Assembly (NCBI GenBank): GCA_964565165.1
Contig: CAZMDJ010000003.1
Span: forward strand, 7,054-69,043
Length of the DNA: 61,990 bases
Direction of reading: 5' to 3'
DNA from: an uncultured Actinomycetes bacterium
GTDB lineage: Bacteria; Actinomycetota; Actinomycetes; Nanopelagicales; Nanopelagicaceae
Positions 4,133 through 60,193 of this stretch are shown here, one piece after another (the stretch's first letter is position 1; each line of letters opens with the position of its first letter). Under the pieces are notes generated by a model. The model saw only the letters and a program-made list of their open reading frames with translations. It did not search any database and was not told the origin of the DNA. A program made the translations under genes and the position numbers.

Positions 4133-4138
4133 GACGGA

Positions 4139-4489: not shown

Positions 4490-4522
4490 TTTCTTTCCTT
4501 TTTACTCTTCTATTACTCGCCG

Positions 4523-5521: not shown

Positions 5522-5591
5522 GTTTTCTCCTCTTTCCTTTGAGGGGATCCACTATTTGATCCCCGTTCTGGTCTTACGAAATTAAAAACTA

Positions 5592-6218
5592 TTACTTTGA
5601 GTAAAGTTCAACGATTAGTTGTTCTTGTACCTGTGTATCGATCACTGAACGGTTTGGTAGTCCGTGAACGATGATGCGCATCTGTGATGGAACAACTTCC
5701 ATCCAAGCTGGAACTGACTTCTCGCCGAATTCCGCACTTGCAACGATGAACGGTGTTAGGTCATGTGACTTTGGAAGAACATCAATCACATCGAATTGTG
5801 AAACGCGATATGAAGGAATGTTTACCTTCTTGCCATTAACCAAGAAATGTCCGTGACGAACAAGCTGACGTGCCATGTCGCGTGACTTTGCAAAACCTGC
5901 ACGATAAACAACGTTATCTAGACGGGTTTCCAAAAGGATAAGTAGGTTTTCACCTGTCTTACCTGCGCGGCGGTTAGCCTCTTCGTAATATGAACGGAAC
6001 TGCTTCTCTAGTACACCGTAGATACGTGCAGTCTTCTGCTTTTCACGCATCTGAAGTAGATACTCAGATTCCTTACCGCGACCACGACCATGCTGTCCTG
6101 GTGGGTATGGACGAGATTCAATAGGGCACTTTGGTCCATCGCACTTTGATCCCTTAAGGAAAAGTTTTACCTTTTCGCGACGGCAGCGCTTGCAATCTGC
6201 ACCTGTATAACGAGCCAT
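5592..6218 (-). CDS. rpsD: 30S ribosomal protein S4
   Basis: The 208-aa ORF begins [23 protein letters not shown]. Confidence 0.97.
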
Positions 6219-8813: not shown

Positions 8814-8816
8814 TAA

Positions 8817-38739: not shown

Positions 38740-41700
38740 TCACACCTCTTCTACTGAGCTTGGCTCAACTCGTGACAAGTTAATTCCAAGTTCTTCTGCT
38801 GCTCGGAATACTTCATCATCTGTGTCGCGCATTTCGATTGCAACACCTTCTGAAGAAAGTACTTCAACATTTAGACATAGTGATTGCATTTCCTTAACAA
38901 GAACCTTGAATGATTCAGGGATACCTGGCTCTGGAATGTTTTCACCCTTAACGATCGCTTCGTAAACCTTTACGCGACCAAGCACGTCGTCAGACTTAAT
39001 AGTCAACAACTCCTGCAATGTGTATGCAGCGCCATAAGCTTCAAGCGCCCACACTTCCATTTCACCGAAGCGCTGACCACCGAACTGTGCCTTACCGCCA
39101 AGTGGCTGTTGAGTAATCATTGAGTAAGGACCCGTTGAACGTGCGTGAATCTTGTCGTCGACCAAGTGGTGCAGCTTCAAGATGTACATGTAACCAACTG
39201 AGATTGGTGTTGGGAATGGTTCGCCTGAACGGCCATCAAATAGATTTGCTTTACCTGATGAACCGATTAGTTGTAGACCATCACGGTTAGGAAGAGTTGC
39301 ACCTAATAGGCCAGCAACTTCTTCTTCCTTAGCGCCGTCGAATACTGGAGTTGCAACGTTTGTTCCTGGTTCTGCTTTTGCAGCACCAATCTCTTCAAGA
39401 TGCTTTGTCCAAGCTTCGCCAACACCTGAAAGATCCCAACCAGTCTTTGCAGCCCAACCCAAGTGCATTTCAAGAACCTGTCCGACGTTCATACGTCCAG
39501 GTACACCAAGTGGATTAAGGATTACATCGATTGGAGTTCCATCTTCAAGGAATGGCATATCTTCAACTGGAAGAATCTTTGAGATAACACCCTTATTACC
39601 GTGGCGACCAGCAAGCTTGTCACCAACTTGAATCTTGCGCTTCTGTGCAACGTAAACGCGAACAAGTGTGTTTACACCTGCGCCTAGTTCGTCGCCTTCT
39701 TCAGATTCAAAGACTTTAACGCCGATGATCTTGCCTGATTCACCATGAGGAACCTTTAGTGAGGTATCGCGAACTTCGCGAGCCTTCTCACCGAAGATTG
39801 CACGGAGCAAGCGCTCTTCTGGAGTTAATTCGGTTTCGCCCTTTGGAGTTACCTTTCCAACCAAGATATCGCCAGGAACAACTTCTGCACCTACGCGGAT
39901 GATGCCTCGTTCATCAAGGTCAGCAAGTACTTCTTCAGAAACGTTTGGAATATCGCGAGTGATCTCTTCTGCACCAAGCTTGGTGTCGCGAGCATCAACT
40001 TCGTATTCTTCAATGTGAATAGATGTCAGTTCGTCATCTTGTACTAGACGCTGAGAAAGAATGATCGCGTCTTCGTAGTTATGACCTTCCCATGACATGA
40101 AGGCGATTAGAAGGTTCTTACCAAGAGCCATTTCGCCCTTGTCAGTTGAAGGACCGTCAGCGATAACTGTGCCAACTTCAACCTTCTGACCATCTGCAAC
40201 CTGCACGCGCTGGTTGTATGAAGTTCCCTGGTTTGAGCGACGGAACTTAGATAGTGAGTAGTTGTCGTACTTACCATCGTTTGTCATAACTGTTACTTCA
40301 TCAGATGAAACTTCAGTTACTACACCCGCGCTCTTTGCCATGATTACATCGCCAGCATCGATTGCGTTACGCCATTCCATACCAGTTCCAACTAGTGGAG
40401 ATTCTGGACGCATTAGCGGAACAGCTTGACGCATCATGTTAGAACCCATCAACGCACGGTTAGCGTCTTCGTGCTCTAGGAATGGAATCATTGCTGTTGC
40501 AACAGAAACCATCTGACGTGGTGAAACGTCCATGTAATCAACTTCGTCTGCCGGAATGTATTCAACTTCTCCGCCACGACGACGAACAAGAACACGTGCT
40601 TCAGCAAATGTGTTATCCGCGTTTAGCGGTGCATTTGCATGAGCGATTACGTGCTCGTCTTCTTCGTCTGAAGTTAGGTAATCAAACTAATCTGAAACTT
40701 TTCCGTTAACAACTTTGCGATATGGAGTTTCGATAAATCCAAATGCAGTTACACGTGCGTATGTTGCAAGACCACCGATAAGACCAATGTTTGGACCTTC
40801 AGGAGTTTCGATTGGACACATACGTCCGTAGTGAGATGGGTGAACGTCACGAACTTCGAAGCCCGCACGGTCACGTGATAGTCCGCCAGGTCCAAGCGCT
40901 GAAAGACGACGCTTATGTGTAAGACCTGACAATGGGTTTGTTTGATCCATGAACTGTGACAACTGAGATGTTCCGAAGAATTCCTTGATTGATGCAACAA
41001 CCGGACGGATGTTGATCAATGTCTGAGGAGTAATCGCTTCGACATCTTGTGTTGTCATACGTTCGCGAACAACGCGTTCCATACGTGATAGACCGGTACG
41101 AACCTGATTCTGGATTAGTTCGCCAACTGTACGTAGACGACGGTTACCGAAGTGATCGATATCGTCAGCTTCTACGCGAACTTCCTTGCCGTAATCCATA
41201 ACTAGATCGCCACGGTGTAGCGCAACTAGGTACTTCAGTGTTGCAACGATGTCCTGAATAGTAAGCAAATTAGCTGCTAATTCTTGCTCAAGACCTAGCT
41301 TCTTATTGATCTTAAAGCGACCGACCTTGGCCAAGTCGTAACGCTTTGGATTGAAGTAATAGTTCTCAATTAAGTTCTGCGCAGCTTCCTTTGTTGGAGG
41401 CTCGCCAGGACGAAGCTTGCGGTAAATATCTAACAGCGCATCGTCTTGTGTCTTTACGTTATCTTTTTCAAGAGTCTGGCGGATTGAATCGTATTCACCG
41501 AAGTTTTCGATGATCTGTTCTTCTGTCCAACCTAGAGCCTTAAGGAAAATTGTTACAGATTGCTTACGCTTACGATCGATACGTACGCCAACCTGATCTT
41601 TCTTATCTACTTCGAATTCAAGCCATGCACCACGTGAAGGAATGATCTTCGCTGTGAATACATCTTTATCTGAACCCTTTTCAATTGAGCGTTCGAAATA

Positions 41701-42240
41701 AACACCTGGTGAACGAACAAGCTGTGAAACAACAACACGTTCGGTGCCGTTGATTACGAAAGTTCCGCGAGGTGTCATCAATGGGAAGTCGCCCATGAAA
41801 ACAGTCTGCGATTTAATTTCGCCTGTTTCGTTATTCATAAATTCCGCAGTTACGAAAAGTGGAGCTGCGTAAGTCATATCGCGCTCTTTGCACTCGTCTA
41901 CTGCGTACTTTGCAGGCTCGAAGCGATGATCACGGAATGAAAGTGACATCGATCCTTGGAAATCTTCGATTGGAGAGATCTCCTCGAAAATTTCTTCTAG
42001 ACCTGATTGTGATGGTAGTTCTCCACGAAGAGATTCCGGTGAGCTCGCCATACGCTCGCGCCACTCAGCATTACCAAGTAACCAATCAAAGCTCTCACGT
42101 TGTAGAGCAAGAAGGTTTGGTACTTCTAGTGGTTCAGAGATTTTGGCGAAAGAAATACGGCGTGGAGCAGTTTTATTCTTTGACGCGGCCAAGTTATGTC
42201 CTTCCAAGACAATTTTTAAAACATTACGTTTCACATGCAC
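38740..42240 (-). CDS. rpoB: DNA-directed RNA polymerase beta subunit, interrupted by one in-frame TAG at 40689..40687
   Basis: The two track ORFs (40687..42240 and 38740..40533) are in the same frame. The 51 codons between them are open and encode conserved beta-subunit sequence. Rif-cluster [32 protein letters not shown] is present. The N-terminal start is uncertain (GTG 42240, GTG 42234 or TTG 42207). Confidence 0.93.
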
Positions 42241-42292
42241 ACACGACTATTAGGCCGCCAGCCGCTATATGCCATGACCTAGTAAAAAAGTG

Positions 42293-42369
42293 TGAGGGAG
42301 CAGGATATCGGTGCTTGCTTTCCCATGTCTAATCGGGTAAAAGCTCTAAGCCCCGCTCCTGCTCCCTCA
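42293..42369 (-). promoter_or_regulatory. long-loop inverted repeat upstream of rpoB (terminator/attenuator-like on the minus strand)
   Basis: tgagggagcagga (42293-42305) and tcctgctccctca (42357-42369) form a perfect 13-bp inverted repeat with a 51-nt spacer. On the minus strand the stem is followed by CAC then T6 (plus-strand A6 at 42284-42289). Confidence 0.4.
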
Positions 42370-42516
42370 ATCCGGCGAGCCCACCAGGCCGGACCTTTAA
42401 GCAGAGTCTGGGGCAGATCTGTGAGAAATTCGTGTGAAGAGGGGTTCAGCTCTATAAGAAATGCTCGCGCTCACCATTTGGTAGCGGTAGCCCTATCTAC
42501 CTGCGAAACTTAAACC

Positions 42517-43191
42517 GTGAGTAAAGGGCAGATTCTCGTAGTTGATGATGAACTCGCGATCAGAGAGCTGATCACCGAAGTTCTCAATATCGCTGACTTC
42601 CAGGTCACAACTGCAGCCGATGGCCTTGAAGCGCTAAATCAGGTCCGCAAAACTAAATTCGATCTGATCCTGCTTGATGTGAATCTTCCAAAAGTTGATG
42701 GATTTGCAGTCCTTGAGAAGGTCCGCGAAAGCGCTCCGACCCAGCCAATCATCATGCTCAGCGCTCGTACCAGTAAAGATGACGTAACGCATGGCCTTCG
42801 TTTAGGTGCAGATGATTACATCCGCAAACCATTTAGCGTTGAAGAGCTGGTGCTTCGCGTTGAAAATCGATTGAAACGAAATGGCTCTGATGTGGACACC
42901 GTTTTAAGTTGCGGCCCACTCTCTTTATTTGAAGGCGAACATAAAGTTACTTTCAACGAGAAGACTATTGACCTATCTCCTACCGAATTTAATCTTTTGC
43001 AGGTTCTGCTTCAGAATCAGAATCGCGTATTAACAAAAGAGAAGTTGCTCGATCTCGTTTGGGGTCTTGATTTCGAAACCACCACCAACGTGGTCGATAC
43101 ATACATCTCTTACCTTCGTAAAAAATTACATATAAATGGATTCGAAGGAATTAAAACTGTGCGAGGCGTCGGCTTTAAGTTGGAGTGTTAA
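42517..43191 (+). CDS. OmpR/PhoB-family response regulator
   Basis: The 224-aa ORF has a receiver domain (ILVVDDE...DLILLDVNLPKVDG) and a winged-helix C-terminus (LSPTEFNLLQVL...VDTYISYLRKKL...IKTVRGVGFKL). GTG start. Confidence 0.92.
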   Translation: MSKGQILVVDDELAIRELITEVLNIADFQVTTAADGLEALNQVRKTKFDLILLDVNLPKVDGFAVLEKVRESAPTQPIIMLSARTSKDDVTHGLRLGADDYIRKPFSVEELVLRVENRLKRNGSDVDTVLSCGPLSLFEGEHKVTFNEKTIDLSPTEFNLLQVLLQNQNRVLTKEKLLDLVWGLDFETTTNVVDTYISYLRKKLHINGFEGIKTVRGVGFKLEC

Positions 43192-44339
43192 TGAAGTTAA
43201 GCACGCGCCTAGCTTTAGTTGTCTCTGCGATTCTGGCAATCACTACCATTATTTCTAGCGCTCAATCTGTAATTGTCCACAGGAACGAGAAGCTCAATAC
43301 ATATAGCGATGTACTCAATAACTTAGCTAATCAGCTCGCCTCATCTGATGAGAATGATTTAACTTTTGCGCTGTTCATTGCCGAGCAGAGCCCAATCCCA
43401 ATGTCACTTGCTTACATCTCCCCAGAAGGCCACGCTACTTATTTAACCGAAGCGGCTGGATCTGGGTTAGTTATTCCAACTAAAGAGCAGTACCAGAAAG
43501 GTTTACAAGAACCGCTTCTCTTTAGAGACATCATGGAACGTTTCTACAAAATCGGTAAGAACGAATACATTGGTTTCTACGTATCAATCACTGATTTAAA
43601 TGATGAAATTAACCGTAGCTTTAAGAAAATCCTCTTCTTTAACTTAATTATCATTCTGATCGCTGGTCTCTTAATTACTTTTATTTTCCGCCGCGACAGT
43701 AAGTTAAATAGCGCCGCTAAAGGTATGCAGGAATTTATCGGCGATGCTTCCCACGAACTCAAGACTCCGCTTACTGTTATTCGCGGTTATTCAGAGATCT
43801 TGAGTAACAATCCCGATCAAGGCGAAAAATACGCACGACGAATTCATGATGAATCCCTTCGCATGTCCAGCATCATCGATCAGTTACTAAAGATCGCAGC
43901 ACTTGATGAGGGGCATAAAGAGGAACCTGTATCGATTGATATCGCCGAATACTTAAAGTCTCACATTGAAGATATTTTGATGTTACAACCAAATCGAATG
44001 GTTTCCTTTGTTCCTGAACCATTGATGGTGAAAGCTCCATACGATTTAGTAGACACACTTCTTTCAAATGTACTTACCAATGCACGTATCCATTCACCAG
44101 AAGATGCGCCACTTCTTATCTCTATTACCGGTAAGCAAGTAACAATTGAAGATGGCGGTCCGGGGATGAAAGAGATTCCAGATAAACCATTTATGCGCTT
44201 TGATTCATCGCGTTCACGCAAGACTGGCGGCAGCGGTTTAGGTATGAGTTTGATTCAAAAGTGCGCCAAAGAACTTGGCGCAAAGTTGAACTTCGGTAAG
44301 AGCGATTTAGGCGGTTTGAAAGTAGAGATTACTTTCTAG
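43191..44339 (+). CDS. sensor histidine kinase
   Basis: The protein has two TM segments flanking a ~130-aa extracytoplasmic loop. The H-box is FIGDASHELKTPLTVIRGY, with N and G boxes (NARIHSP; DGGPGM; GGSGLGMSL). ATG 43191 overlaps the RR stop as TAATG; the alternative GTG at 43185 is used by the track. Confidence 0.9.
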   Translation: MKLSTRLALVVSAILAITTIISSAQSVIVHRNEKLNTYSDVLNNLANQLASSDENDLTFALFIAEQSPIPMSLAYISPEGHATYLTEAAGSGLVIPTKEQYQKGLQEPLLFRDIMERFYKIGKNEYIGFYVSITDLNDEINRSFKKILFFNLIIILIAGLLITFIFRRDSKLNSAAKGMQEFIGDASHELKTPLTVIRGYSEILSNNPDQGEKYARRIHDESLRMSSIIDQLLKIAALDEGHKEEPVSIDIAEYLKSHIEDILMLQPNRMVSFVPEPLMVKAPYDLVDTLLSNVLTNARIHSPEDAPLLISITGKQVTIEDGGPGMKEIPDKPFMRFDSSRSRKTGGSGLGMSLIQKCAKELGAKLNFGKSDLGGLKVEITF

Positions 44340-45985
44340 TTTCCAAACCAACCTTGAATTGCACCAACTACATCTGAACCTTTAACAATTAGCACCAAGA
44401 CAAAGTAAACGCAGATTCCAAGTAATCTATATGAATATCTGGTTAGTGCAGTTCGTTGCCAGCTAGATGCATCTCGCTCTGAATTAGCCATTGCATACAT
44501 TGCGCCGATAATCACTGTTGGGATTGTCAGAACCACAAATGCTGATCGCAAATATGTGTATGGATCTTCGATCTGTGATGCCAATACATTTGCGAAGTAG
44601 GTGCCAATTAAAATCATGATTACAGTCTTAACTGCACCGGTTGGCAAGAACTTACCTTTGAATGCAGCTTCTGGAATGTAATGGGTGTATCGCTCGATAA
44701 TTGATGGAAGTACGAATAGAGCTGTACCGATCCAAAGTTCGAGTGAGTTACCGATAAATAGCTCTGCAGTTAGATTAAAGAGAACCGCTCTAAAGACAAT
44801 GACAACTGAGGTGTGACGTGAATGCACATCCTGAGGTTCTGATTCCTCATGTAGAGCGTTTGTACGTACGGGATATCCATAAGTTACAAACTCTTCTAGC
44901 AACATGCGACCAACTAAAACGATAGCCGCAAAGATTGCAATCTTATTTGCCTCAGGCATGATGGTTACTTTGTAGCCAGATAGGCCGCCAAGTGCGTAAA
45001 CCATCTTCTGCACTCCCCAACCCATTAATAAAGCTGCAAGTGCATAGTCAGTTGCACGTTCCCAGAACGAGGCGAAATCTTTAACTTCGCGACGTAATGG
45101 ACGGAATGCACTTGCTAGAAGTCCTGGAACAAACCAGAGCATTACGTAACCGACTGTGGTTAGTAGTGAATGACGAGAATCGATATTTCCCGAAAGGAAA
45201 ACACCGCCAAAATATAGGAATGCAGCGAAGAAACCTGCATAGGCATCAAGTAGACCAATAAGAATTCCGGCCATTGTTAAACCAAGCGTTGCAGGTAGCG
45301 CTTTGAAGTGCGCTGCATGTAGTGCCTGAGAAGCGACAATGAAAGCGGCTGGATAAAGCAGGTAGCTAACTGAACCAATCATTGATCGCAGATATGTGCC
45401 GTCAATAATTAAACGGTGCATCAATGGGCTAAAACGTGAGAACTGAAATGCTGCTAATCCGAATTCGCGATCCGCTAACCCAGTTAATGGAAAGCGCCAT
45501 GTTCTTAGTCGATCTCCCCAACCAGGTTTACGTTTAATTTTCTCTAGTTCGCCTGTCTCAATCGCTTCGAGTGAGCTCTGCTCGACATCGCCTTCTGAAC
45601 TTCCAGAGGTATCTGATTCATTCTTTGAACCACCAACAGCGCCAAGAATAGAAAGCGCTGCGACTGCTAAGCCAGTTGTTCCCACTGGATCATCAGCAGG
45701 ATTAAATGGTGCCAATTCGCCAGGGCATAGGTCGTCCCACTTGATAATTCCTTTTGAAGTTTTGCAGAACTTTAATGTTTGTGTACTTACTACGCCGCTG
45801 TCATCACTAACTTCAATATCTACCTCATGATGTCCAGGCGGTACATCTGCAGGAATTTGAATATCAAGCGCTTCAGCTTCTGATGTTGTTATGCGATCAA
45901 TTAAAACTGTGTCTTTAGCCCAGGAAGGCATCGTAAGAAGCTGTAACCCCACGATTGCTGCAAGCACTAGTAACTTCTTCTTCAT
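44336..45985 (-). CDS. polytopic membrane protein of unknown function (signal peptide, small extracytoplasmic Cys-pair domain, Ser/Glu-rich linker, ~10 TM)
   Basis: The 549-aa ORF begins [25 protein letters not shown]. Its ATG overlaps the giant gene stop (TAATG). Its TAG stop overlaps the convergent kinase TAG within the palindrome CTAG (44336-44339). Confidence 0.75.
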   Translation of the reverse strand: MKKKLLVLAAIVGLQLLTMPSWAKDTVLIDRITTSEAEALDIQIPADVPPGHHEVDIEVSDDSGVVSTQTLKFCKTSKGIIKWDDLCPGELAPFNPADDPVGTTGLAVAALSILGAVGGSKNESDTSGSSEGDVEQSSLEAIETGELEKIKRKPGWGDRLRTWRFPLTGLADREFGLAAFQFSRFSPLMHRLIIDGTYLRSMIGSVSYLLYPAAFIVASQALHAAHFKALPATLGLTMAGILIGLLDAYAGFFAAFLYFGGVFLSGNIDSRHSLLTTVGYVMLWFVPGLLASAFRPLRREVKDFASFWERATDYALAALLMGWGVQKMVYALGGLSGYKVTIMPEANKIAIFAAIVLVGRMLLEEFVTYGYPVRTNALHEESEPQDVHSRHTSVVIVFRAVLFNLTAELFIGNSLELWIGTALFVLPSIIERYTHYIPEAAFKGKFLPTGAVKTVIMILIGTYFANVLASQIEDPYTYLRSAFVVLTIPTVIIGAMYAMANSERDASSWQRTALTRYSYRLLGICVYFVLVLIVKGSDVVGAIQGWFGN

Positions 45986-48900
45986 TACTTACCTTCCTTA
46001 ATTGTTACTTTAACTTTCTGTCCTGGTTTCAAATTTGTCACATTGAATTTTGCATTCGAACCAGAAGTCTTTGGCGTGATATTTACTTTCTTCGCTGCAG
46101 GTTGCCTAGCAGTACTTGCCTTGGGTGCAGCTTGTGCCTTTTCAACAATAGTTACCTTCACCTTTTGGCCAGGCTGCAAATTAGTTACGTTTACGTTTGC
46201 ACTGGTATCTGTGGTCTTAGGTTCAATCTTCACAGGTGCGCTACTTGGCTTAGTTGTTGGAGCCGATGCACTTGCAGATGGTTTAGTAGATGCTGACGCA
46301 CTTGCTGAAGGCTTCGCTGATGCAGATGCAGAGGTAGATGGTTTAGCTGTCGCACTTGCTGAAGGCTTCGCTGATGCAGAAGCGCTTGCAGATGGTTTAG
46401 CAGAAGCTGATGCGCTCGGTGAAGATGATGGCTTCGGTGAAGAAGTTGGTGATGGAGAAGATGAAGGCTTCGGAGTTGCACTCGGAGATGCACTCGGTGA
46501 AGGAGTTGGCTTCAATGTTGGCGATGCAGAAGGCGATGCACTTGGTGTCGCACTTGGTGTTGCACTCGGGGTTGCAGAAGGTGTTGGCATTACCGATGGA
46601 GTCGGTGAAGGTGACGGCGAAGCAGACGGTCTTGGCGTTGGTGTTGGTGTTGTGGGAGTTGATGGAGTTGTTGGAGCAGATGCGCCACCGCCACCGCCAC
46701 CTCCGCCACCGCCAGAGTTATTAGAAGGAGCAGCTGCAAATGTAATTGTTACTGCTGATGAAGTTACAGATCCGTAGGTGCTATCTCCTGCTTTTGTTGC
46801 AGTTGCAATACAAGTACCCGCTCCATTTGCAGTAACCGATCCGGTACTTGATACAGCGCAACCTGCCGCCGTTCCGCCAGTAATTGCGTATGTAATTGAA
46901 CCAGTTCCGCTACCACCAGAAGTTATTAGCGCAACCGGTGTACCTACAGTTGCGTTCGAACCAGTAACGCTTAACGCCGCTTGAGATTGTGCTGCTACGC
47001 CAATAGTCACAACTTTAGATACGTTCTTTACGATGCCACCAATAGTTACCGCTGCATTAATTGTGAATGAAGCAGCAGCCGAAATTGCGGTTGGAGTTCC
47101 AGAGATGGTTCCCATCGCTGGATCGAAAGTTAATCCTGCCGGAAGTGTTCCGGTCAATGAATAAACAATTGAGGACCCAGCTTCTGCCTGAATTGACGTT
47201 GAGATTGGCGTAATTGCATTTCCAACGGATCCGGTAAGAGTCGTAACTGATGTAGAAATTGCAGGATCGGTAATAAAGGTAGTTGATGTAGTTGCGCTAC
47301 CAGTTCCAGCTGAGTTAGTTGCAGTCACAACTGCGTTGTACTGAGTACCGGGCGCTAATCCTGTTAAATTCGCAGAAGTTGTTGTTGAAGTAGTTGTAAC
47401 AGTTGAGCCGGTGTTTACCGGTACCGCACTGATTGAATATTGAGTGATTGATGCTCCACCGGTATTTGTTGGCGCAGTGAAAGTTACATCAGCTGTTGAA
47501 GTGCTGCCGGTTGGCACTGATGCATTTACGCCGCTTGGTGATGATGGTGCACTTGCATTAACACCGATAGTTATTGTTGCCGTACCCGTATCAACTGTTC
47601 CACTTGGCAGAGTGGTTGAAACAGTAATCACAAATTGTGTTGGCGAAATAGCAACAGTTGGAGTTCCAGAAATTTCACCAGTATTTGGGTCCAAAGTTAA
47701 GCCCGCAGGGAGTGGCCCTGCAATTGAATAGGTTGTTCCTGTAGCGCCAAGTGCAACAATTGAAACTGTAATTGGAGTAATCGCTTGATCAATAGTTGTA
47801 GTCAAGCTATTTGTTGATGGAGTGACACCTACTGGAGTAACAATTCGAGTTGAAGCAGTTGTATCCGGGCCGGTTCCTGCTGAGTTGGTAGCTGCAACAG
47901 ATACAACATATTCAGTACCCGGTACAAGATTTGTGACAGTTACTGCTGAACCAATTACTGACGCCGATGGTGTCGCATTAATAATCGTGCCTGATGAGAC
48001 AGGTGTAATTGCAATTGCATATGTAGTGATTGTTGCGCCACCATCGTATGTAGATGCACCAATGTTTACAGCTGCCGTTGTCGCAGTTGGTGTAGTTGCA
48101 GATACTGATGCTGGTGCGCCAGGAACTACAGGATTAACGCCCAATGTAAATGTCGTTGTACCGGTAACAGTCGCACCACCAGTAACCGTTGCTGTCGCAG
48201 TAACAGTAAATGTTGTTGCGTTGATTGCGACTGTTGGTGTTCCAGAAATTTCTCCAGTTGTTGTATCAAGTGTTAATCCTGCAGGTAGCGCGCCGCTTAC
48301 AGAATATGAAACTCCTGTTGGATTAGAACCAGTAATGGCAGCAGAGATAGGCGTGATTGCCTGGCCAACAGAAGCTGTTTCACTTGATGAACTTAATGAA
48401 ACACCAAGCGGAGTTGTGAAGGTAGAACTTTGAGAAGTCGTGCCACTGCCTGAACTATTAGCTGCAGTTGATGTAACTGTGTAAGTAGTACCTGGTGCAA
48501 GTGAAGTTGTCGGTACAGATGTTGAAGTTGTGTTTTCGACAACCGGCGTACCACCGCCAACTGGCGTGAAAGTTGTTTGATAGCCAGTAATTGTTGCGCC
48601 GCCATTTGATGTTGGTGCGGTCAAAACAACTGTTGCTGCAGTTGATGAAGTTGCAGTTGCAGATTGAATTCCTGGAGCAGATGGTGGCGCTGCTGGGGTT
48701 GTAATTGAAGTTGCAGCTGATGTTGCACTTCCCTGACCAACTGCGTTAATCGCTACTGTAGATATTGAATAGGTAGTGCCTGCTGCTAGGCCACTTAATG
48801 TGACAGCGTTTGAAATATCTGCAGCGTTTACAGTTAAGTTAATAGGGGTTCCGCCACCTGTAGGTGTTGCAGTTATCTTGTAAGAAGTGATCGCAGATCC

Positions 48901-51900
48901 ACCGTCAACTGTCGCTGCACCAACCGTTACCGAAGCGGTTGAATAAGTTGGCGCAGTTGCCGAAACAGTTGCTGGAGCACCAGGTACAGTTGCAGGCGCA
49001 ACAGGTAATGAAAGCGCTGAAGCAGTTGAAGAACCCACACTGTTATTAGCAACCACTGAATATTGATAATTAGTTCCGTTTGTTAAGCCAGAGATTCGAC
49101 ATCCGACCGCTGGATCTGTTGCTGTACATGTACCGGCAGATGAACCATCTGGATTCTTCGCTGTAACTGTATAGCTGGTGATTGCAGCGCCGCCAGTTGA
49201 TGAAGGTGCGGTAAATGTAACTGTGGCAGCGGTGTTTTCAACTGTTGCTGTTGGAGAAGTTGGTACGCCAGGTGAAGTTGCTGGTGTTGAAGTTGCTGAG
49301 GTTGATGGCGCTGAAGAACCGGATGAATTCGTTGCAACAGTTGTAAATGAATATGCGGTTCCGTTAGTTAGACCTGCAATTGTGCAACTTGTTGCTGGTG
49401 AAATAACGGTGCAAGATCCGGCGGTTGATCCATCAGGATTTTTTGCAGTAACGGTGTAAGAAGTTGGTATTCCACCACTGCCACTTCCTTGGGCTACATC
49501 GATAGTTACTGAGCCATTGCCTGAAGTTAATGTCTGTGTCGGCGCATCAGGCGCAGCTGGCACCCAAACTGCAGTTAGCGTTGTGTTAGTTGTAGGAGTA
49601 ATTGTCGATTGAGGTGCAACAGTTGTAGATCCTGTTGACCAAGCTGTCAATGCAAATCGAGTTCTGGTGATACCGGTTGTCGGTGCAGTCTGAACGGTTG
49701 TACTTGGTGCAACCAATTGAGTAGATGGCGCAGTACCTGTTGTTGCACCAGCAATTGAATAAGAGACACCAATTAGCGCAGCAGACCATTGCGCAGTAAG
49801 TGTTACTGCATATGCAGGCATGGTGTACGTGCTGCCTGCAGCCATCACGTTTGTGCCGTCGCTCCAACCTAAGAAATTCTTTGTGGCATCTGTATTAGTT
49901 GGAGTTGCTGCCAATGTAAATGTTGAGCCGTACGCAGTATTTCCTTGAGTAGGTACTGAGCCAGTACCACCGGTACCCAAGTCATAAGTAACCGCATATG
50001 AAGCTGCTACCCATTTTGCAGTAAAGGTTACGTCGCGATCAGGCATTGTATAAACAGCACCGGATGCAAAAGGAGCTGCCACATCTAACCAACCATCAAA
50101 GTTGTAACCAGTTCTAGTTGGTATAACCGAAGTTACGGTTACTGAGTCGTTGTAAGAATGCGATGTAGCGCTCAAAGTTGTTGAACTAGTTCCTTGGTTT
50201 AGGTCATAAGCAACGGTGTGGGAATTTGATGTCCACTGAGCAGTAAGAGTTACACCGTTTGGATTTGCAAGTGTGTAATTGGCGCCAGCGCCATAAGTGT
50301 TTGTTCCATCGCTCCAGCCTGCAAAGGCGTAGCCAACTTTGCTAATCGCTGCCGCCAAAGTAATCGTTGTTGTAAATGCACCTGTCTGCGTACTGGTAAC
50401 CAATGTCCCGCCATTGCCTGCATATGTTGCAGTAATTGTCGCTGGTGTCCATTGTGCAGCTAAGACGTAATGGTTATCGCGAACTTGATACGCAGATGCT
50501 GCGGCAACAGTTTCGCCACTTTGATCTTTCCAATTAACAAAGTTATAGCCAGCACGAGTTGGTGTTGCATTTGTAGTGATGTTCTGAAGATCATTACACA
50601 TGTTCCCTGCATTAGCGCATTCACTATCAATATCTGATTCGGCAGGAGTTATAACTGCATGAGTGCCGCCATTTAATACGTATTTAACTACGAAACGTTT
50701 GATCCATTGCGCTGTAAATGTAGTTCCACCATCTTGCACAATATAAGTAGAACCTTCAGCATAAATAGTTCCAGACGTACTCTTCCAGCCAACAAAGGCA
50801 TATACCTGGGTATTTACGGTGACTGTTGCGGAATCAATATTTTGAAGAGTGTAATTCGAACCAAAAGCACGAGTAACCGTTGTAGTTGCAAGAGTTAGCC
50901 CTGATGAAGTGCTTCCATCTACCGTACCTGCGTTGAAGTTAAGGGTTTGATTTGCCGGTGTCCAAATTGCATAAAGAGTTGTATTAGCTGTCGGTGTATA
51001 CGAACCACTAATTACTGAACCTGTTGGAGATGTCGACCACCCAGAAAGCGAGTACCCAGTCTTTGTCATTCCAGATGCATCCGGAAGCGATAAGCCAGTA
51101 CCAGAAGTTGTATATGTTGCTGCGCCATTTGTTGCAGATCCTGTTGCACCATTTGTGTTCCAAGTGATGTTGTAAGTACCTGGAGACCATTGCGCATAAA
51201 GAGTTACAGATTGTGTAGGCGTATACAGACCGCTAATTACAGTTGAAGTTTCAGACCAACCGCTAAATACATAGCCAGCTTTCTCCATTGTTCCAACAGT
51301 TGGCAAGCTTATTGCTGAACTTCCATAAGCAAATGAATCCGATGTGCGCGATGCGGATCCTGTTGCACCGGTATTTGGGTTATAAGTAATTGTGTAAACC
51401 AATGGCGACCATTGCGCTGCAAAAGTTACGTTTGCTGTAGACATGGTGAAAGTCTGTCCAACACTGTAAATCGTTGAACCTGATGCCCAACCAGTAAATG
51501 TATAACCGGTACGAGTTAGTCCTGTTCCGGCTGCAACTGTAAAAGTCTGACCACTTGAATGCGTTGGCTCTGTTGGAACATTTCCTGTTCCGCCATTTGC
51601 ATCATATGTAACCACGTACTGAAGAGCTGTCCAGACTGCAGTCAAAGTTACATTGCTAGCCCCAACAGTGTAAGTAGAACCATATACATATGAAACATTT
51701 GCTTGATCGGTCCAGCCAGTAAATGTGTAACCGGTATTAGATAAACCAGTTCCTGCTGCTACTGAGAAGGTTTGTCCGATGGTCTTGTTGGCCTCTGTTG
51801 GGAGCGTTCCGGTGCCAGAACCGCTATTTACATAAGTAATTGTGTAGCTAACTGCGCTCCACTTTGCGAACAAAGTAAGCGCTGCAGAGGTGCTGTAGGA

Positions 51901-54900
51901 ATCGCTTGCTGCATAGTTTGTACCAGTTCCATCAGCTGCAGTATTCCAACCATTAAATGCGTAACCACTCTTAGTCATTCCCGCAGGAGGAGATGCAATT
52001 GAATAAGCAGTACCGCCAGTTACGAAAGCACCTGTTGTAGGAACGGTAGTTGAACCACCATTTGAGTTATATGTAATTGGATATGAGATTCCACTCCACT
52101 GTGCATATAAAGTGATGTTTGCAGTTGGTGAATATGCAGTTCCGTTTGGCCCAACCAAAGTTCCGCTAGATGCTGCAGTAAACCAACCATTAAATGTGTA
52201 ACCAGGTCGTGTTGGCAGCGGAAGTGTTACCGGAGTTCCTAAATTGAAGTTGGCAGATGTTGGTGAAACTGTTCCGCTATTTGCATCATAAGTAATTACG
52301 TAAGGTGCTGGAGTAACTACTGCACTTGGTGCAGATTGTGCAGAGCTTCCAGCTCCATCATTTGCAGTTGCTTTAAATGTGTAAGCAGATCCGTTAGTCA
52401 ATCCAGCAACTGTGCAAGATGTTGCAGGCGAAGTTACTGTGCAAGTTCCAACTGCATTGTTATTTGAATCGTATGCAGTAACTGTGTATGAAGTTGGTGC
52501 CGGTGCTGAAGGTGCATAAGAAAGAACAATTACACCTGAACCACCAGATGAACCTGCGCCACCACCAGATCCAGTATTGGCTGCACCTGCAGCTTGCACT
52601 CCTGGATAGGCAGTTCCATAACCATTACCACCAGCTGCATAAGTAACTGATGCGCCAGAAATACTTAACGCAAGACCTGCGCCACCAAGACCAGGAGATG
52701 TATTTCCAACAATCGGATATCCGGCAGAGATAGCACCGCCACCACCGCCGCCTTGTAGTGATGCGCTATTACCGCAACCAGGACCACCGGCATTTGCGTA
52801 CATTGCCCAATCAGTAAAAGTTGCTTGCGTTGGCGTTCCGCCAGCATTCAAAGTACACGTACCTGATGGCGCATAACCACCGCCACCAGAACCACCGCTT
52901 GTTCCACTTGCACTTCCGCCGCCACCGCCTTTAGCGGTTACAGATGCAAATACTGAATCACCACCACTTGCACCAATAGCTGTAGATGTATTTCCAGTTC
53001 CACCAGCTCCAACTGTCATCGATAAAGTCGAACCAGGCGTAACTGAATAAGAAGGATTGTAAAGAAGTCCGCCGCCGCCGCCGCCACCGGCGTTGCCTCC
53101 CCAACCACCACCGCCGCCACCGCCAACTACAAGAACCGCCATGTTTGTTACGTTGGCAGGAACTGTGACAGTTGAGCTACCGGTAGTAGTAACTTTATAA
53201 ACACAATTTCCATTTGTTAAAACGAATGGAGAAACACAAGATACTGATCCATTTGTAACTGAAACAGTCGCAGTTGTATTACCTGCAGTAGCCGAGACCG
53301 TTGGAGCCGCTGGAACCAACATAGTCCACTTTGCATAAATTGTTGTATCGCCAAATAAGGTAATAGTTGCACCATCAATATATGGAGTACCTGTTCCATT
53401 TGCTGCTGTTGTCCAGCCATCAAATGCATAACCTGCGATTGCAAAGGTTCCGATATTGATATGGAATGCCTTGCCTGCAGTAAAGGTTTGTGTCGCCATT
53501 GTGCCCGAAGCTGTTGTTCCTGCTACGGCATTTGAATTGAAGGTAAGTGTGTAGTTATTTGCATTCCAAATTGCATAAAGCGTTGTGTTACCCGTCGGGG
53601 TCAATGTTGTGATTGAAGTAGTGCCTGCAGCAGTAGTCGCCCACCCACCGAATGAATAGCCAGTCTTTGTCATAGTTCCGACTGTCGCAAAAGAGGTAAT
53701 TGCCGCACTGCCATATGTGTAATTCTGAGTAGCTACAGACGCAGTACCTGAACCGGCATTGTTTGAATAGGTAACTACATAAATCTGAGCTGTCCACTGC
53801 GCATATAAAGTAATTGCGCCATACAGTGTTACTGACTGCTTATCTGTGTAAGAAGTACCAGTTCCACCTGCAACCGTATTCCAACCATTGAAGGTATAGC
53901 CGGTGCGGGTAAATGCATTTGCATTGATTGTGAAAGCGGTACCAGCAGTAAAGCTCTGATTAGTCATGGTGCCAGCACCAGAGTTAGCGTTGAAAGTTAT
54001 GGCATATGTATTTGCGCTCCACTTTGCATAAATCGTCATTGCTGCATACAAAGTTAAAGATTGTGCATTTGTATAAGCGGCACCTGTGCCATCCGCATTA
54101 GCTGTCCAACCTGAGAATGTGTAACCAGTGCGAGCAATCTGAGTTGTGTTACTTGTTAAAGCAAGCGCTGTACCTGCTGTATATGTCTGGTTCGCAATTG
54201 TTCCAGTACCACCATTTGCATTAAAGGTAACTGCAAATGTTGTTGCCTGCCAGACTGCGTACAAAGTGATTGATCCAGTTGGTGTGTAGCTTGCACCTCC
54301 AGCATATGCTGCGGTTGTTGCAGTGCTTGTAGTCGCCCAACCTAAGAAGTTATATCCAGTCTTAACCATTGTGCCAACAGTTGCTAAATTGACAGCGTTG
54401 CTAGAAGTTAATGACATCGAAGCAACTGAAGGCGCACCCGATGACGGTGTTGATCCTAGATTTGCATTAAATGTAATTGTGAAATTCCATTGGGCATAAA
54501 GCGTGATATTTCCTGCGCCAGTGTATGAAGCACCAACCGCATAGTTGGTTCCACTGCCATCTGCTGCAGTATTCCAACCACTAAATGTGTAATTAGTTTT
54601 AGCAAGCGTTCCACTATTTGTTGCCAATGTTCCAGCGATGCTATTTACAAAGTTTGTTGGGTAAGGAATTGTTCCGCTGGTTGCGCCGTTCGCGTTGTAA
54701 GTAACTAGCGAGTTCCATTGAGCGTAAACCGTAACATTGCCTGTAGGTGAAGTTAAATATGTGTTGAAAGCTGAACCAGTTGCAGCATATGTAGGGATGG
54801 CAGGAGTTGAAGTTGTGATTCCGTACTTCTCTTTTAGGAACATCTCGACTTGCAACACTTCTGCAGCTGTTAAAGTGCTGTTATAAATCACTAAGTCAGC

Positions 54901-57900
54901 CAGTTGCCAATCTGAATATTCGCCAGAAACCCCGTTATTTACCGAAATATTGGCAGGCAAGTAAGTAATAGTTGAGGTTGCATTATTTTTTGCTAAACCG
55001 TCATAAATTAGGTTATTTCCATAATCACAAATTACATGAAAACTACTATCAGCTACGTTAGTGGATGGAGTTATCCAACCGTTGTGATACGCAACTCCAA
55101 CGTGGCCTGCATAAAAACCAGTTAGCCAATTAATGTTTGTGGCATCAATTAATCGACCTTTAGTTACTCCCGAATATCTGGCAACAAAACAAAGCGTGTA
55201 ATTCGTTAATTGGGTGTTTGGCAGAACAAAGCCAGATGTGCTCGCGCCACTTAAAACACTTATAGATTTAGAAGTTCCATTTGCAACCGCTACTGAAGCT
55301 ACCGTTGGTGTACCTCTGATTGAAGTTGAATTTCGTCCATTTCCAGATTGATCAAGCATAATTCGGTTTACTGAATCCCAAGAGTTTGCGTTGTATTGCA
55401 AATACGGCGCAGGCAACATCGGTGGATTTACGCCAAACAAAGTTCCACTGCCGGTTGCAGAAGTATTCCAACCGGAAAATGTGTAATTTAAAGTGGAATT
55501 TGTTTTGGCAAGTGAACCAACATTTCTAGATAATAGAACATCTTCTGTCGCGCCCGTTATAGTTTCAGAATTTGGAGCAGTTCCGGCTGTATTTGTATTT
55601 CCATCATATGTAAGTGTGTATGTCCACTTGGCATACAAAGTTAATGAAGAAGTTGGCGTGTAACTTGTACTTGCCGCTATGTCGGTACCACTTCCATCTG
55701 CCGCAGTGTTCCAGCCTGCAAATGTAAATCCGCTTCGAGTAGCACCTGCTGCGGTTGTGATTGCGGCATCTGGTGCACTTTGAGTAACAGTTGAATTGGT
55801 TCCTGAACCACCATTCACATCAAAAGTAACAGTTAGCGCTTTATCAAAAGCAATGATGATGGTTCCTGCGCCACCTGCACCGCCACTTGCGCTTCCGGCT
55901 GAGCCACCACCACCGCCACCACCTTGACCATCAATACCTGCAGATCCAGCAACGGCTGCTGCAATGTAATTTCCGCCATTGCCGGCGCCATTGAATAGCA
56001 CACCAGTTCCACCAAGACCAATGTGAGTTCCTGAAAATGGTGAGTTGTATCCGCCGCCACCGCCACCGGAGCCGTAAATAACTGCTTTTCCGCTAATTGA
56101 ATTTGTAGTTCCTAATAAACCATTACACATAACGCCATATTGAGCGGTCGGTCCGGCGCCACCCATTGCACCATTTGCAGTTGTTCCGGTACCACCAGCT
56201 GTCTTGCCAGGCGTAGTGCAATTTGCTGCACCATTTCCCCAAGTTGCGCCACCTGCTCCGCCAGTTGCTGAATAAGTTGTTGCGCCAACTGTAATTGTCG
56301 AAGCAGAACCTGCTGTTGCTGGAGCACCACCTGCGCCAACCGTTAAAGATAAAACTTGCCCTGGTGTAACTGAAACATTTGTAGCTGCAGTTAAGCCACC
56401 ACCACCACCACCGTTACCAACGTTCGCACCGCCACCGCCACCGCCACCAACCACCAATAAATCAATAGAAGTTACGCCTGCAGGAACCGTGTACGCGCAC
56501 GCGGCTCCTGCAGGAAATTTAATTACTTGATTACCACCACCAGTTGAAGTCGTTGGAGAACAATTCAAAGTCCAAATCGCATATAAAGTTATATTTCCAG
56601 TTGGCGTATAGCTTGAACCAGGCACATAACTTGTTCCCGATCCGTTTGCAGCCGTGTTCCAACTAGTAAACGTGTAACCAGATTTAACCATTGTGCCAAC
56701 TGTTGCAAGATTAATTGAAGCACTTGGCAAAGCAGATATGGTCGCTTGCGATGCAGTACCAGAAGTAGCGGTATTGATATTGAAAGTAACTGTCGCGGTC
56801 CACTTTGCATACAAAGTTATGTTTCCGCTAGAAACGTATGACGCACCTAAAGCATAGTTAGATCCTGATCCATCCGCCGCAGTGTTCCAACCAGATAATG
56901 TGTAACCTGTTTTTAATAACGTAGTTGGATTAGCTAAATTAAATGGAGCGGATCCTTTAGAAGTGTATACCGCTGGTACCGTACTTACTACGGAAGTATT
57001 TGTATTTCCGCTATATGTAATTGTTGAATTCCATTGAGCGTATAAAGTGATATCGCCAGGAGATGAGTATGTTGCTAAACCTGCCGCATAATTTGTGCCG
57101 CTTCCATCAGCTGCAGTATTCCAACCTGTAAATGTAAATCCGGTACGAGTTAAAGAACCTGAATTCGTGGCTAAAGTTGTAGTAGCGGCTATTCCCACTG
57201 CAGTTGTTGGATTTGGAGCCGTCCCGGCATCTGAATTATTGTCATCGTAAGTTATCGTGGAATTCCATTGGGCATATAAGGTTAAATTTCCCGTTGGGGT
57301 ATAGGTATATCCCTGTGCATAATTTGTACCAGTTCCGTTTGCCAAGGTATTCCAGCCAGTGAAGTGATAACCAGTTTTTGTGCCTGCATAATTAGATTCA
57401 ACTGTTAAATCAGAAATTGGGCTCGTTTGAGTTTGGGTTGCCGGAGCGGTACCAGTGCCACCATTTACATTGTATGCAAGTGTGAATTTAACTAACGGGG
57501 CACAACGTGCAGCCAACTGATCAAACCAAAGATTCGAATAAGTACTCTGTCCGATCATTACATCGCCGGAATTACACAACATGCTTGCAGTCAATGTTTG
57601 CGTCGTATGAGTAATCAATTTTGGCGATGCTTGAGTTGCAATCAAATCAGTCTCAGCGCCAGCATCATTTAATAAAGGTAATGTTTTGCATTTAAGACCA
57701 ATATGAATTCCACTGGAATTTATCGCTTGATATCCAACTGCGGCCATACCATCTGGACAGAAAACGTAGTTTGCAGTTGCACGTAAAGTTGCTGATAGCG
57801 GGCTGACAGTTAGATCTGCATTCAAAGGTGCACACTTATAACCATTAACCATTGGGTTTTGGTTATAAGTTATGCCTACGACTACATTGTCAGCGGCACA

Positions 57901-58074
57901 TGCGCTAGGACCGTTGTAATTGCCTCCACCAAATACATACCAGCTCGAATCGTATGCAGTGCCTAAACGAGCAGCTTTCGCACTTGGAGCGCTTATTGAA
58001 ATAAACAAGAATGGGGCTATTAAAGTTGCTACTACTAGCCTCGTTACGGTGCGGAAACGCGAGCTGGCAAGCAC
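45985..58074 (-). CDS. giant (4029 aa) secreted mosaic repeat protein, candidate cell-surface or adhesin-like protein
   Basis: A single uninterrupted 12,090-nt ORF. The GTG start is preceded by GGGGGTG. A signal peptide is followed by arrays of Listeria-Bacteroides-type (InlB B-repeat/Flg_new-like) repeats, two Gly-rich domains, a LamG-like module, FN3-like and Ig-like modules, and a Pro/Ser/Ala/Thr linker. No LPXTG or C-terminal TM was seen. Confidence 0.9.
46225..46735 (-). repeat. poly-Gly (G10) followed by a Pro/Thr/Ser/Ala/Lys low-complexity tandem-repeat linker
   Basis: [42 protein letters not shown]...[48 protein letters not shown]. At nucleotide level a 30-nt exact repeat cgcacttgctgaaggcttcgctgatgcaga occurs twice about 54 nt apart (~46298 and ~46352). 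Confidence 0.85.
46990..49560 (-). repeat. FN3-like modules (about 6 here, plus one at ~52303-52519) alternating with three Ig-like 'GxISGTPT' modules
   Basis: FN3-like example: [36 protein letters not shown]. Another: [14 protein letters not shown]...[23 protein letters not shown]. Ig-like (He_PIG-like by memory) example: [42 protein letters not shown]. Confidence 0.65.
49564..52302 (-). repeat. Flg_new-type repeat array 4 (about 12 copies, more degenerate)
   Basis: Units end LYAQW, LFAKW, LTAVW, FAAQW, LYAQW, LYAIW, FTAQW, LAAQW, LTAQW, FTAKW, LTAQW, LTAVW. Core motif G[YF]xFxGW is retained. Confidence 0.75.
52520..53240 (-). other. glycine-rich domain copy 2 (approx)
   Basis: [80 protein letters not shown]...[12 protein letters not shown] is collinear with copy 1. 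Confidence 0.55.
53320..54799 (-). repeat. Flg_new-type repeat array 3 (about 7 copies)
   Basis: Successive units end VYAQW, LYAQW, LYAVW, IYAKW, LYAQW, LYAIW, IYAKW. Confidence 0.8.
54815..55425 (-). other. LamG/concanavalin-like lectin-type module (approx)
   Basis: The segment lacks the repeat motif: [17 protein letters not shown]...[11 protein letters not shown]...[12 protein letters not shown]...[20 protein letters not shown]...[33 protein letters not shown]. The ending is typical of Laminin_G_3-like domains as I recall them. Confidence 0.5.
55431..55844 (-). repeat. Flg_new-type repeat array 2 (about 2 copies, the second truncated)
   Basis: [13 protein letters not shown]...[17 protein letters not shown]...LYAKW, then [17 protein letters not shown]...[18 protein letters not shown]. 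Confidence 0.75.
55845..56565 (-). other. glycine-rich domain copy 1 (approx)
   Basis: [79 protein letters not shown]...[13 protein letters not shown]. It resembles my recollection of the Pfam Gly_rich family (ALK/LTK-type polyglycine). Confidence 0.55.
56566..57492 (-). repeat. Flg_new/InlB-B-type repeat array 1 (4 copies, approx coordinates)
   Basis: The ~70-75-aa units begin like [TV]xYxxNGGTG and end GY[TH]F[TS]GWNTxA[ND]G[ST]GTxY...[LF]YA[QKI]W. Confidence 0.8.
57973..58074 (-). other. signal peptide of the giant protein
   Basis: [34 protein letters not shown] | ARLG has a basic n-region, a hydrophobic core and an AKA-A cleavage motif. Confidence 0.7.
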
Positions 58075-58269
58075 TTTTTCACCCCCGCGCTAGAGAAATA
58101 ATGACCGAAATTTGTCCGGCAAGTGCTCAATTCTTTTCTATAGCTCGTGCAGGTGAAAACTGAAATCACCCTTTTTGGGGTGATTAGATGGGGCGAAAAT
58201 TAACCTGCAATTTTTTGTAAATTTTCTTAATTTATAACTTTTTAACTTTTAATTTTTTTATTACAAAAG

Positions 58270-58301
58270 AAAAACCCCGACCGTGGAGGGCCGGGGTTTT
58301 T
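58270..58301 (-). terminator. intrinsic terminator downstream of rplL
   Basis: ccccgacc (58275-58282), gtggag, and ggccgggg (58289-58296) form an 8-bp stem with 1 mismatch. It is flanked by A5/T5 runs. On the minus strand the hairpin is followed by TTTTTCTTTT. Confidence 0.7.
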
Positions 58302-59825: not shown

Positions 59826-60188
59826 CTATAGAGCTAAATTAATTTCTCGGTTATTTAGATTTTTCTGGTCGCCGCTATTTCGACGCCAAAGTGCTACGAA
59901 CATCAAAATGAAGAGCGCATAGAAAAGATATTTACCAAGATTACTTTCGCGTTTTAAGAAGATTGTAACGACACTAAAAACTGGCAGCGTATAAATTGCT
60001 ACTTTTCTGAGACCTTTAAATTCTGGAACCCAATCCAGCAATCCGACACTTTCAAGAATTACTAAAAGAAGTGCGATTCCAAAGTAGATTAAATCTGGAT
60101 TAAAACCGCGATAAAGCTGAAAAATGAAATTTACCGAAAAGACAGCAATCCATAAACTTACAGATTGAAATCTTCGTACTTGATTCAT
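59826..60188 (-). CDS. small integral membrane protein, unknown function (about 4 TM)
   Basis: The 120-aa hydrophobic ORF starts 5 nt downstream of the antiporter gene stop. Confidence 0.55.
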   Translation of the reverse strand: MNQVRRFQSVSLWIAVFSVNFIFQLYRGFNPDLIYFGIALLLVILESVGLLDWVPEFKGLRKVAIYTLPVFSVVTIFLKRESNLGKYLFYALFILMFVALWRRNSGDQKNLNNREINLAL

Positions 60189-60193
60189 TTCAA

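Follow-up and report, generated by a model that had tools for sequence, protein, structure and literature searches.

A giant secreted protein and its multi-pass membrane partner appear to form a strain-variable two-gene cassette in Nanopelagicaceae

We analysed a stretch of 61,990 nucleotides (nt) from an uncultured member of the Nanopelagicaceae (GenBank assembly GCA_964565165.1, contig CAZMDJ010000003.1, positions 7,054 to 69,043), hereafter the window, in which the gap between rpoB and rplL holds a gene for a giant secreted protein, directly followed by a gene for a membrane protein of 549 amino acids (aa), here called the partner, and, converging on these two, a response regulator and sensor kinase pair. 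Comparison with related genomes supports the view that the giant gene and the partner gene are a functional pair, and the two appear to make up a self-contained, strain-variable cassette that is present or absent within one species. The partner is probably the membrane anchor of the giant protein, the best supported of the three roles (anchor, exporter or modifier) that an earlier note on this DNA had suggested. That the two proteins dock by strand complementation of an immunoglobulin (Ig)-like domain split between them is inferred from the alignments and structure models, and we give it an even chance. The regulator and kinase are an older, ancestral resident of the gap, unrelated to the cassette.

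The two cassette genes are joined without a spacer: the TAA stop of the giant open reading frame (ORF) (45987..45985, minus strand) overlaps the ATG of the partner (45985..45983) as TAATG, and the Shine-Dalgarno-like run AAGGAAGG lies 6 nt 5' of that ATG. At its other end, the partner gene meets the kinase gene, the TAG of the first (44338..44336, minus) and the TAG of the second (44337..44339, plus) overlapping within CTAG. The ORF map and the sequence show that the earlier note had placed both overlaps correctly, and the kinase junction was reproduced, with zero differences, in an independent assembly as a 14,062-nt contig from runs X1 and X2. Pfam identifies the flanks of the locus as rpoB and rplL/rplJ. 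The domains found in the regulator (receiver and winged-helix) and in the kinase (HisKA and HATPase_c) are those of an OmpR/PhoB-type two-component system, as the note had proposed. Other features of the locus are collected in Table 1.

A scan for the partner gene, covering one genome per species with flanks of 10 kb, returned 79 loci; the full-length matches are nearly all from Nanopelagicaceae/Planktophila, and several genomes hold two copies. In about 45 loci a very long ORF on the same strand directly precedes the partner gene; those that are complete encode 1500-3300 aa, and many others extend to the limit of the 10-kb flank and hence exceed 3300 aa. Of 45 related loci, 41 have a stop that overlaps the start (ATGA-type in 24, TAATG- or TGATG-type in 17), and because it is conserved to this extent we take the overlap to be a real feature. 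The window has the same arrangement, with the partner immediately 3' of the gene for a large secreted protein, in the same orientation and joined to it by TAATG. The downstream neighbours differ widely, with Peptidase_C15 (pyroglutamyl peptidase) in 11 loci, an ABC-2 permease in seven, a response regulator in six, DUF885 in four and many singletons; therefore, the cassette occupies many chromosomal contexts. The co-occurrence and synteny that the earlier note had asked to see checked are thus found across Nanopelagicaceae, where the pairing, the overlap and a C-terminal tag on the giant proteins all recur. No description of such a cassette was found in the literature searched, which included papers on Nanopelagicales, and the PADLOC defence models match neither the giant protein nor the partner.

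The giant protein of the window begins with a Sec signal peptide (~58074..57973) and contains, according to Pfam, 21 Flg_new, seven fn3 and two Gly_rich_2 domains, together with long Ser/Thr/Pro-rich tracts. It does not have the hallmarks of sortase anchoring, LALTS at residue 1304 being its only LPXTG-like match, and no C-terminal hydrophobic segment was found: with 19-aa windows and a Kyte-Doolittle mean above 1.6 as threshold, only the signal peptide and a marginal window at residue 3664 pass. Among the loci, the proteins encoded upstream of the partner (the cargo) differ in size and in their domains, which include Big_13, He_PIG, fn3, Flg_new and a glycine-rich domain, and the region preceding the C-terminus is PT-rich in some and Ala/Lys-rich in others. 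The cargo always has a signal peptide and a C-terminal tag, and lacks a wall or membrane anchor of its own.

This tag lies 8-14 residues from the C-terminus and has the consensus ..a.f.[VI].[NG]LKPGQK[VI][KR]V[TIS][VI]k..; the exact string LKPGQK occurs in 41 of 46 cargo tails and nowhere in 88,536 aa of cargo bodies. It is hydrophilic, with neither a hydrophobic helix nor a basic tail, and searches of the tag and of the fused proteins described below against NCBIfam returned only noise. In the window, the giant protein carries the tag, ends in ...KVTIKEGK and has two tandem tag units with a 16-residue linker between them. A tandem copy is also seen in L001, L007, L024, L035, L037 and L068, and another cargo subfamily has one; two copies could mean two partners per cargo, or one of them could be a spare.

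No Pfam domain is found in any of the 69 close homologues of the partner, which are 550-590 aa long. Its predicted layout comprises: (i) a signal peptide (residues 1-23), (ii) a partial Ig-like domain (24 to ~90) with Cys74 and Cys87, both invariant, (iii) a PxxxP juxtamembrane motif and the first transmembrane helix, TM1 (~91-119), (iv) an acidic, Ser-rich linker assigned with low confidence (~118-150), (v) the motif GWGD..RTWR with amphipathic helices (152-199), and (vi) a polytopic domain (200-549). The signal peptide, the extracytoplasmic domain with its Cys pair and the linker had all been recognised in the earlier note, which counted about ten membrane helices where we find ~11-12. Invariant residues were identified across alignment A1 of 25 homologues, with which the structure model agrees; RPLRR and WER.TDY are both present, and the polytopic domain contains invariant Asp, Arg, Glu and Asn. 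An N-out topology of 12 helices fits the positive-inside rule, with 23 Lys and Arg in cytoplasmic loops against three in outer loops, and places the best-conserved motifs, GWGD..RTWR, SPL.AR...DG.YLR, RPLRR, WER.TDY and YP.R, on the predicted cytoplasmic face, where they may give the platform a role beyond passive anchoring. The note's statement that no family could be recognised stands: no significant match to Pfam, NCBIfam or PADLOC was obtained, the best sub-threshold one being DUF4625 (E 0.0096, 16.6 bits against a cut-off of 27), and a sequence profile search of the PDB gave none. In one database source, a homologue carries the label 'MFS family permease'.

A profile of the 25 homologues was then searched against 1.84 billion cluster representatives and retrieved 787 of them at E <= 0.001, 520 at E <= 1e-30. 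In many of these relatives TM1 and the multi-pass domain together form the C-terminal portion of a protein of 800-5995 aa, whose ectodomain is built from He_PIG, Big_2, fn3, Gly_rich_2, LRR_5 (BspA-type LRR), DUF285, DUF4082 or Flg_new-like repeats. Among the source organisms are other Actinomycetota (Frankineae bacterium MT45, Acidimicrobiales and Microbacteriaceae), whose proteins carry only the annotation 'hypothetical'. The multi-pass domain represents an unannotated, seemingly widespread family that is absent from Pfam, NCBIfam and the PDB, and the fusions provide independent evidence that it cooperates with a large surface ectodomain, for which it supplies the end embedded in the membrane. 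One group of fused proteins, of 800-970 aa (P0084, P0087, P0088, P0091, P0092, P0096, P0102 and P0103), has in common a Cys-containing N-terminal domain that by eye resembles the N-terminus of the giant protein; in this group the ectodomain joins a PxYDP juxtamembrane motif directly, and the Ig-like split domain is missing.

Nine fused relatives have an intact Ig-like domain of ~100 aa just before TM1, as in GLTVTGDGFLPDSVAIVTLHS running on into TPTTLGTIAISSAGSFEQTLSLPTSLDTGVHHVEV..., and from these nine we built a hidden Markov model (HMM) of the intact domain, used in comparisons with HMMER and hhalign. The mature N-terminus of the partner matches only the second part of the domain (HMM columns 57-100; hhalign probability 88%, E 2.9e-6), and the cargo tails align to the first part (columns ~10-38) in the correct register. 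When tail and mature N-terminus are concatenated, 35 of 41 pairs give a single alignment that spans the junction, and hhalign aligns 86 columns of the concatenation with a probability of 90%. A natural fused homologue, P0124, modelled with AlphaFold2, gave a confident sandwich of eight strands with a predicted local distance difference test (pLDDT) score of 79-89; three strands (EIQLVL, EITISFS and NASIIM) precede the point equivalent to the fission, between the HS and the QP of HSQP, and five follow it. Foldseek matches this model to Ig-like folds, among them those of SoxY/Z, CARDB and adhesin repeats, with a probability of 1.0. The model of the partner alone is of moderate confidence (pLDDT 68.6), falls below a pLDDT of 50 at residues 18-39 and forms one hairpin only; Foldseek finds for it no Ig-like match and no credible fold in the PDB (best E 0.12, TM-score <=0.18). 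Both structure predictions agree with the split.

Several observations nevertheless weigh against an anchor that docks through a split domain. The tail alone is weak (hhalign E 0.019, probability 2.5%): although the best tail ranks in the top 0.014% of 7152 decoy windows from the same proteins, the median tail reaches only the top 3.7%, and the profile-profile score rises only slightly when the tail is added. The poor prediction of the N-terminus in the partner-alone model could reflect a shallow alignment and not an incomplete fold. Moreover, a passive anchor has no obvious need of 12 helices with conserved charged motifs, so that the main role of the multi-pass domain may be a different one.

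Taken at its face, the split-domain anchor would work as follows. In Nanopelagicaceae the Ig-like domain would have been divided between two gene products, the partner gaining a signal peptide of its own at the break, and Sec would export both proteins. Once outside, the three beta-strands formed by the final ~35 residues of the giant protein would complete the truncated N-terminal Ig-like domain of the partner, which has four to five, and the cargo would thus be tethered non-covalently to a membrane platform of 12 helices. The tight translational coupling would keep the giant protein and the partner near 1:1.

The status of the two-component genes was resolved by comparison with relatives. 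L096, in which the kinase is 95% identical to that of the window, belongs to the same species, since its rpoB is 98.9% identical at the nucleotide level; in L096, as in L097 with the same kinase identity, the regulator-kinase pair lies between rpoB and rplL and the cassette is absent. Compared base by base, L096 reads '...tactttctag' followed at once by 'aaagaaaaaccccgaccgtggagggccggggttttt...' and runs on into rplL, and in the window these two halves are separated, the first ending at 44339 and the second resuming at 58266, with the right edge uncertain by 1-2 A residues. The window is the relative plus a 13.9-kb insertion, with the kinase stop codon immediately on its left and a two-way terminator immediately on its right. 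This terminator (aaaaaccccgaccgtggagggccggggttttt; L096 11150-11185) directly follows the kinase stop in the relatives and ends both the kinase gene and rplL; in the window it serves rplL only, and no terminator separates the convergent kinase and partner genes. The position of the insertion explains the common CTAG, the lack of any spacing and the missing terminator alike, and the CTAG overlap is a by-product of the junction and no selected feature. An identical left junction was found in L100-L104, which come from other samples (kinase 96% identical). In the X1 and X2 contigs that cover window 40400-46400, word depth is 109.6 and 71.2 for the cassette against 180.8 and 123.1 for the rpoB contig, and this ratio of ~0.6 suggests a mixture, within one sample, of strains that carry the cassette and strains that lack it. 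As to an origin from a mobile element, neither a target-site duplication nor terminal repeats could be seen at the junctions, and no search for integrase genes was made.

The kinase has more than 1200 homologues, and its orthologues (55-95% identity) are all of 382-383 aa. In contigs whose kinase orthologues are 56% and 64% identical, the order is rpoB(-), regulator(+), kinase(+), rplL(-), rplJ(-), and neither the giant gene nor the membrane partner is found in the rpoB-rplL gap. Neither protein reaches an NCBIfam equivalog cut-off (PhoB 200.9 against 296.2; MtrA 194.2 against 300). Upstream of the giant gene, where the earlier note had proposed a search for regulator-binding direct repeats 5' of position 58074, only AT-rich low-complexity repeats at 42-nt spacing were seen, none of them convincing, and the leader of the giant gene contains no match to the sigma-70 consensus.

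These data bear on the proposal, made in the earlier note, that the regulator, the kinase, the membrane protein and the giant protein act as a single sensor-effector module in which the convergent overlap might give antisense control. Its attraction lies in the adjacency, the common CTAG and the missing terminator, and also in the fact that a different two-component system converges on the cassette in six of 50 other loci, with stops overlapping as TTAA in L070. We consider it very improbable. The pair occupies the gap without the cassette at 56%, 64% and 95% kinase identity, including in the same species; the junction is an insertion point; 44 of 50 cassette loci have no adjoining two-component gene; and convincing regulator-binding repeats are not in evidence. 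Nor is the system adjoining the other six loci orthologous: its kinase has 579 aa, the order is kinase then regulator, and the regulator is only 31-36% identical to that of the window. Of the four genes once grouped together, the giant and the 549-aa genes remain a pair, recurring in ~45 Nanopelagicaceae loci, whereas the two-component system, which occurs without a giant gene in relatives, drops out, by the very observation that the earlier note had named as one that would refute its module.

Two further explanations concern the partner itself. It could be a sorting enzyme that recognises the tag and either cuts it off or passes the giant protein on to wall or lipid, in the manner of a sortase, exosortase or rhombosortase; a conserved C-terminal tag on variable cargo, encoded beside a polytopic membrane protein, follows the same logic, and the invariant Asp, Arg, Glu and Asn of the membrane domain might suit an enzyme. 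We regard this as unlikely. No sortase, exosortase or rhomboid model matches the partner, the tag is devoid of the hydrophobic helix and basic tail, there is one partner gene per cargo gene rather than one enzyme for many substrates, and most of the conserved charged motifs lie on the predicted cytoplasmic side, which speaks against an active site outside the cytoplasm of the sortase type; in addition, the covalent fusion of the membrane domain to cargo in many relatives is a better fit to an anchor. Alternatively, the partner could be a dedicated transporter for the giant protein, or an enzyme of glycosylation or lipid-linked modification, as its polytopic architecture and the permease label of one homologue might indicate, and the Ser/Thr/Pro-rich tracts of the giant protein could indeed be glycosylated. 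This we hold to be improbable, and it is here that the exporter and modifier of the earlier note give way to its anchor, which the tag and the fusions favour: the giant protein brings a Sec signal peptide of its own, Foldseek finds only negligible resemblance to transporters (the values given above for the partner model), no Pfam transporter or GT-C model matches, and the tag, the truncated Ig-like N-terminus and the fusions would be left unexplained.

If the partner is an anchor docked through a split domain, the closest functional analogy is with the GAIN domains of adhesion G-protein-coupled receptors (GPCRs) and the microbial MAIN domains, in which a beta-sandwich common to two chains holds an ectodomain on an envelope tether, the chains arising by autoproteolysis at HX(S/T) before the last strand (Brogan & Rudner, bioRxiv 10.64898/2026.05.12.724683). 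In the cassette, too, a large adhesive ectodomain would be held non-covalently via one beta-sandwich split over two polypeptides, and in adhesion GPCRs, likewise, the tethered fragment continues into a multi-pass membrane domain, with force-dependent release or signalling as a natural consequence. The cassette chains, however, would be the products of two genes, each with a signal peptide, and the split would fall after strand C of a small, generic Ig-like domain. HX(S/T) is not conserved at the equivalent point, where HST, HSD, HSQ, RSD, FST and YSE are found, the fold is not GAIN_B-like, Foldseek returns no GAIN match, and the membrane domain is not a seven-transmembrane receptor. By analogy only, one may imagine a split device of the adhesion-GPCR kind, in which a pull by a grazer, a particle or a phage detaches the cargo, exposes the unfolded N-terminal strands of the partner and signals or gates through the multi-pass domain; we think this a long shot.

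Other known systems resemble the cassette in part. PEP-CTERM/exosortase, GlyGly-CTERM/rhombosortase and PGF-CTERM/archaeosortase tags are built from a motif, a hydrophobic helix and a basic tail and undergo cleavage. As in these systems, a short conserved C-terminal tag on variable secreted cargo goes with a dedicated multi-pass protein; in contrast, the cassette tag is a hydrophilic beta-strand motif, there is one partner per cargo, and the two are fused in relatives. Searches of Pfam and NCBIfam gave no EpsH/exosortase or rhomboid match, and with its hydrophilic tag the cassette falls outside the exosortase, archaeosortase and rhombosortase systems. In chaperone-usher donor-strand complementation, and in SpyTag/SpyCatcher, an engineered split of CnaB2, an incomplete Ig-like fold is completed by another polypeptide to give a very stable complex. 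The cassette would donate three strands instead of one, no isopeptide chemistry is evident, and the outcome would be membrane anchoring in an actinobacterium and not fibre polymerisation; as a two-gene cassette among unrelated neighbours, with no chaperone or usher, it does not have the composition of a chaperone-usher locus. LapA-type RTX adhesins use type I secretion and are retained by their N-terminus in a Gram-negative outer-membrane pore. There, too, a giant repetitive surface protein is held by a dedicated membrane component encoded next to it, but export of the cassette protein would be by Sec and the tether would run from its C-terminus to a protein of the cytoplasmic membrane.

Table 1. 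Positions of the cassette, its neighbours and its junctions in the window; the last row lists other loci
Feature	Position	Strand	Description or basis
Giant ORF	45985..58074	minus	4029 aa; ORF map and sequence
Membrane-partner ORF	44336..45985	minus	549 aa; ORF map and sequence
OmpR-type regulator gene	42517..43191	plus	Pfam Response_reg and Trans_reg_C
Sensor kinase gene	43185..44339	plus	Pfam HisKA and HATPase_c
Stop/start coupling junction, giant to partner	45983..45999	minus	Shine-Dalgarno-like AAGGAAGG at 45999..45992, then TAATG at 45987..45983
CTAG	44336..44339		Overlap of two convergent TAG stops and left insertion junction
Terminal tag unit	45988..46089	minus	Giant protein residues 3996-4029 (34 aa); proposed strands A-C of the split Ig-like domain
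Internal second tag unit	46138..46233	minus	Giant protein residues 3948-3979
AT-rich 5' leader of the giant gene, its presumed promoter region	58075..58265	minus	Within the insert
Inserted cassette, 13.9 kb	44340..~58265		Partner gene, giant gene and AT-rich 5' leader; comparison with L096
Ancestral two-way intrinsic terminator	58266..58300		Hairpin 58273..58292; sequence aaaaaccccgaccgtggagggccggggttttt
Loci with another two-component system as convergent neighbour (L029, L031, L032, L036, L037, L070)	~11.7-14.2 kb in the loci		One cassette subfamily; regulator ~230 aa

Some further observations were made on the cassette loci and on the gap. The 3' end of the partner gene often abuts or overlaps a convergent stop, as in L070 (11749-11752, TTAA with the response regulator), L018, L029, L036, L037 and L039; either cassettes land at gene ends, or spacers have been trimmed in these streamlined genomes. 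L070 also has an additional single-domain receiver and, after the two-component system, a signal-peptidase-like and a camelysin/TasA-like gene. The rplL-rpoB gap is variable across the lineage: L069, whose RpoB is 88% identical, has a different secreted Ig-repeat protein of 763 aa there on the opposite strand (3652-5943), and L090 has a 181-aa ORF (8702-9247) with the two-component system, as in other relatives. The interval from rplJ to rplA contains the gene of a Na+/H+ exchanger of 380 aa and an ORF of 120 aa (window 59826-61336; L096 12716-14226); in L069 (72-2316) a second copy of the partner gene sits directly upstream of that exchanger and is probably part of a second cassette. In the rpoB of the window, an in-frame TAG (40689..40687) divides the gene into ORFs of 517 and 597 aa, with seven differences within 220 nt. 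A split or pseudogenised rpoB was considered (40468-40690, minus) and rejected in favour of a local consensus error, as the X1, X2 and X5 contigs and L096 read Lys-Val.

Nanopelagicaceae (acI) dominate freshwater bacterioplankton and have tiny genomes, and despite this some ~14 kb, with two cassettes in some genomes, is spent on the pair. How a wall-bearing acI cell retains giant proteins without any recognisable anchor has, to our knowledge, been unexplained so far. The tempting regulatory link to the adjacent two-component system is hereby corrected. If the anchor reading is true, the multi-pass domain would be a new and widespread anchor, and with it a new route of surface display, either fused to its ectodomain or docked via a split Ig-like domain; the cassette could also supply a natural tag/catcher pair. 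If the partner were in addition a mechanosensor, it would represent a new class of bacterial tether in the most abundant freshwater bacteria, with the fused form found across Actinomycetota. The presence or absence of the cassette within a species offers a handle on strain-level surface variation, with a bearing on phage and grazer pressure.

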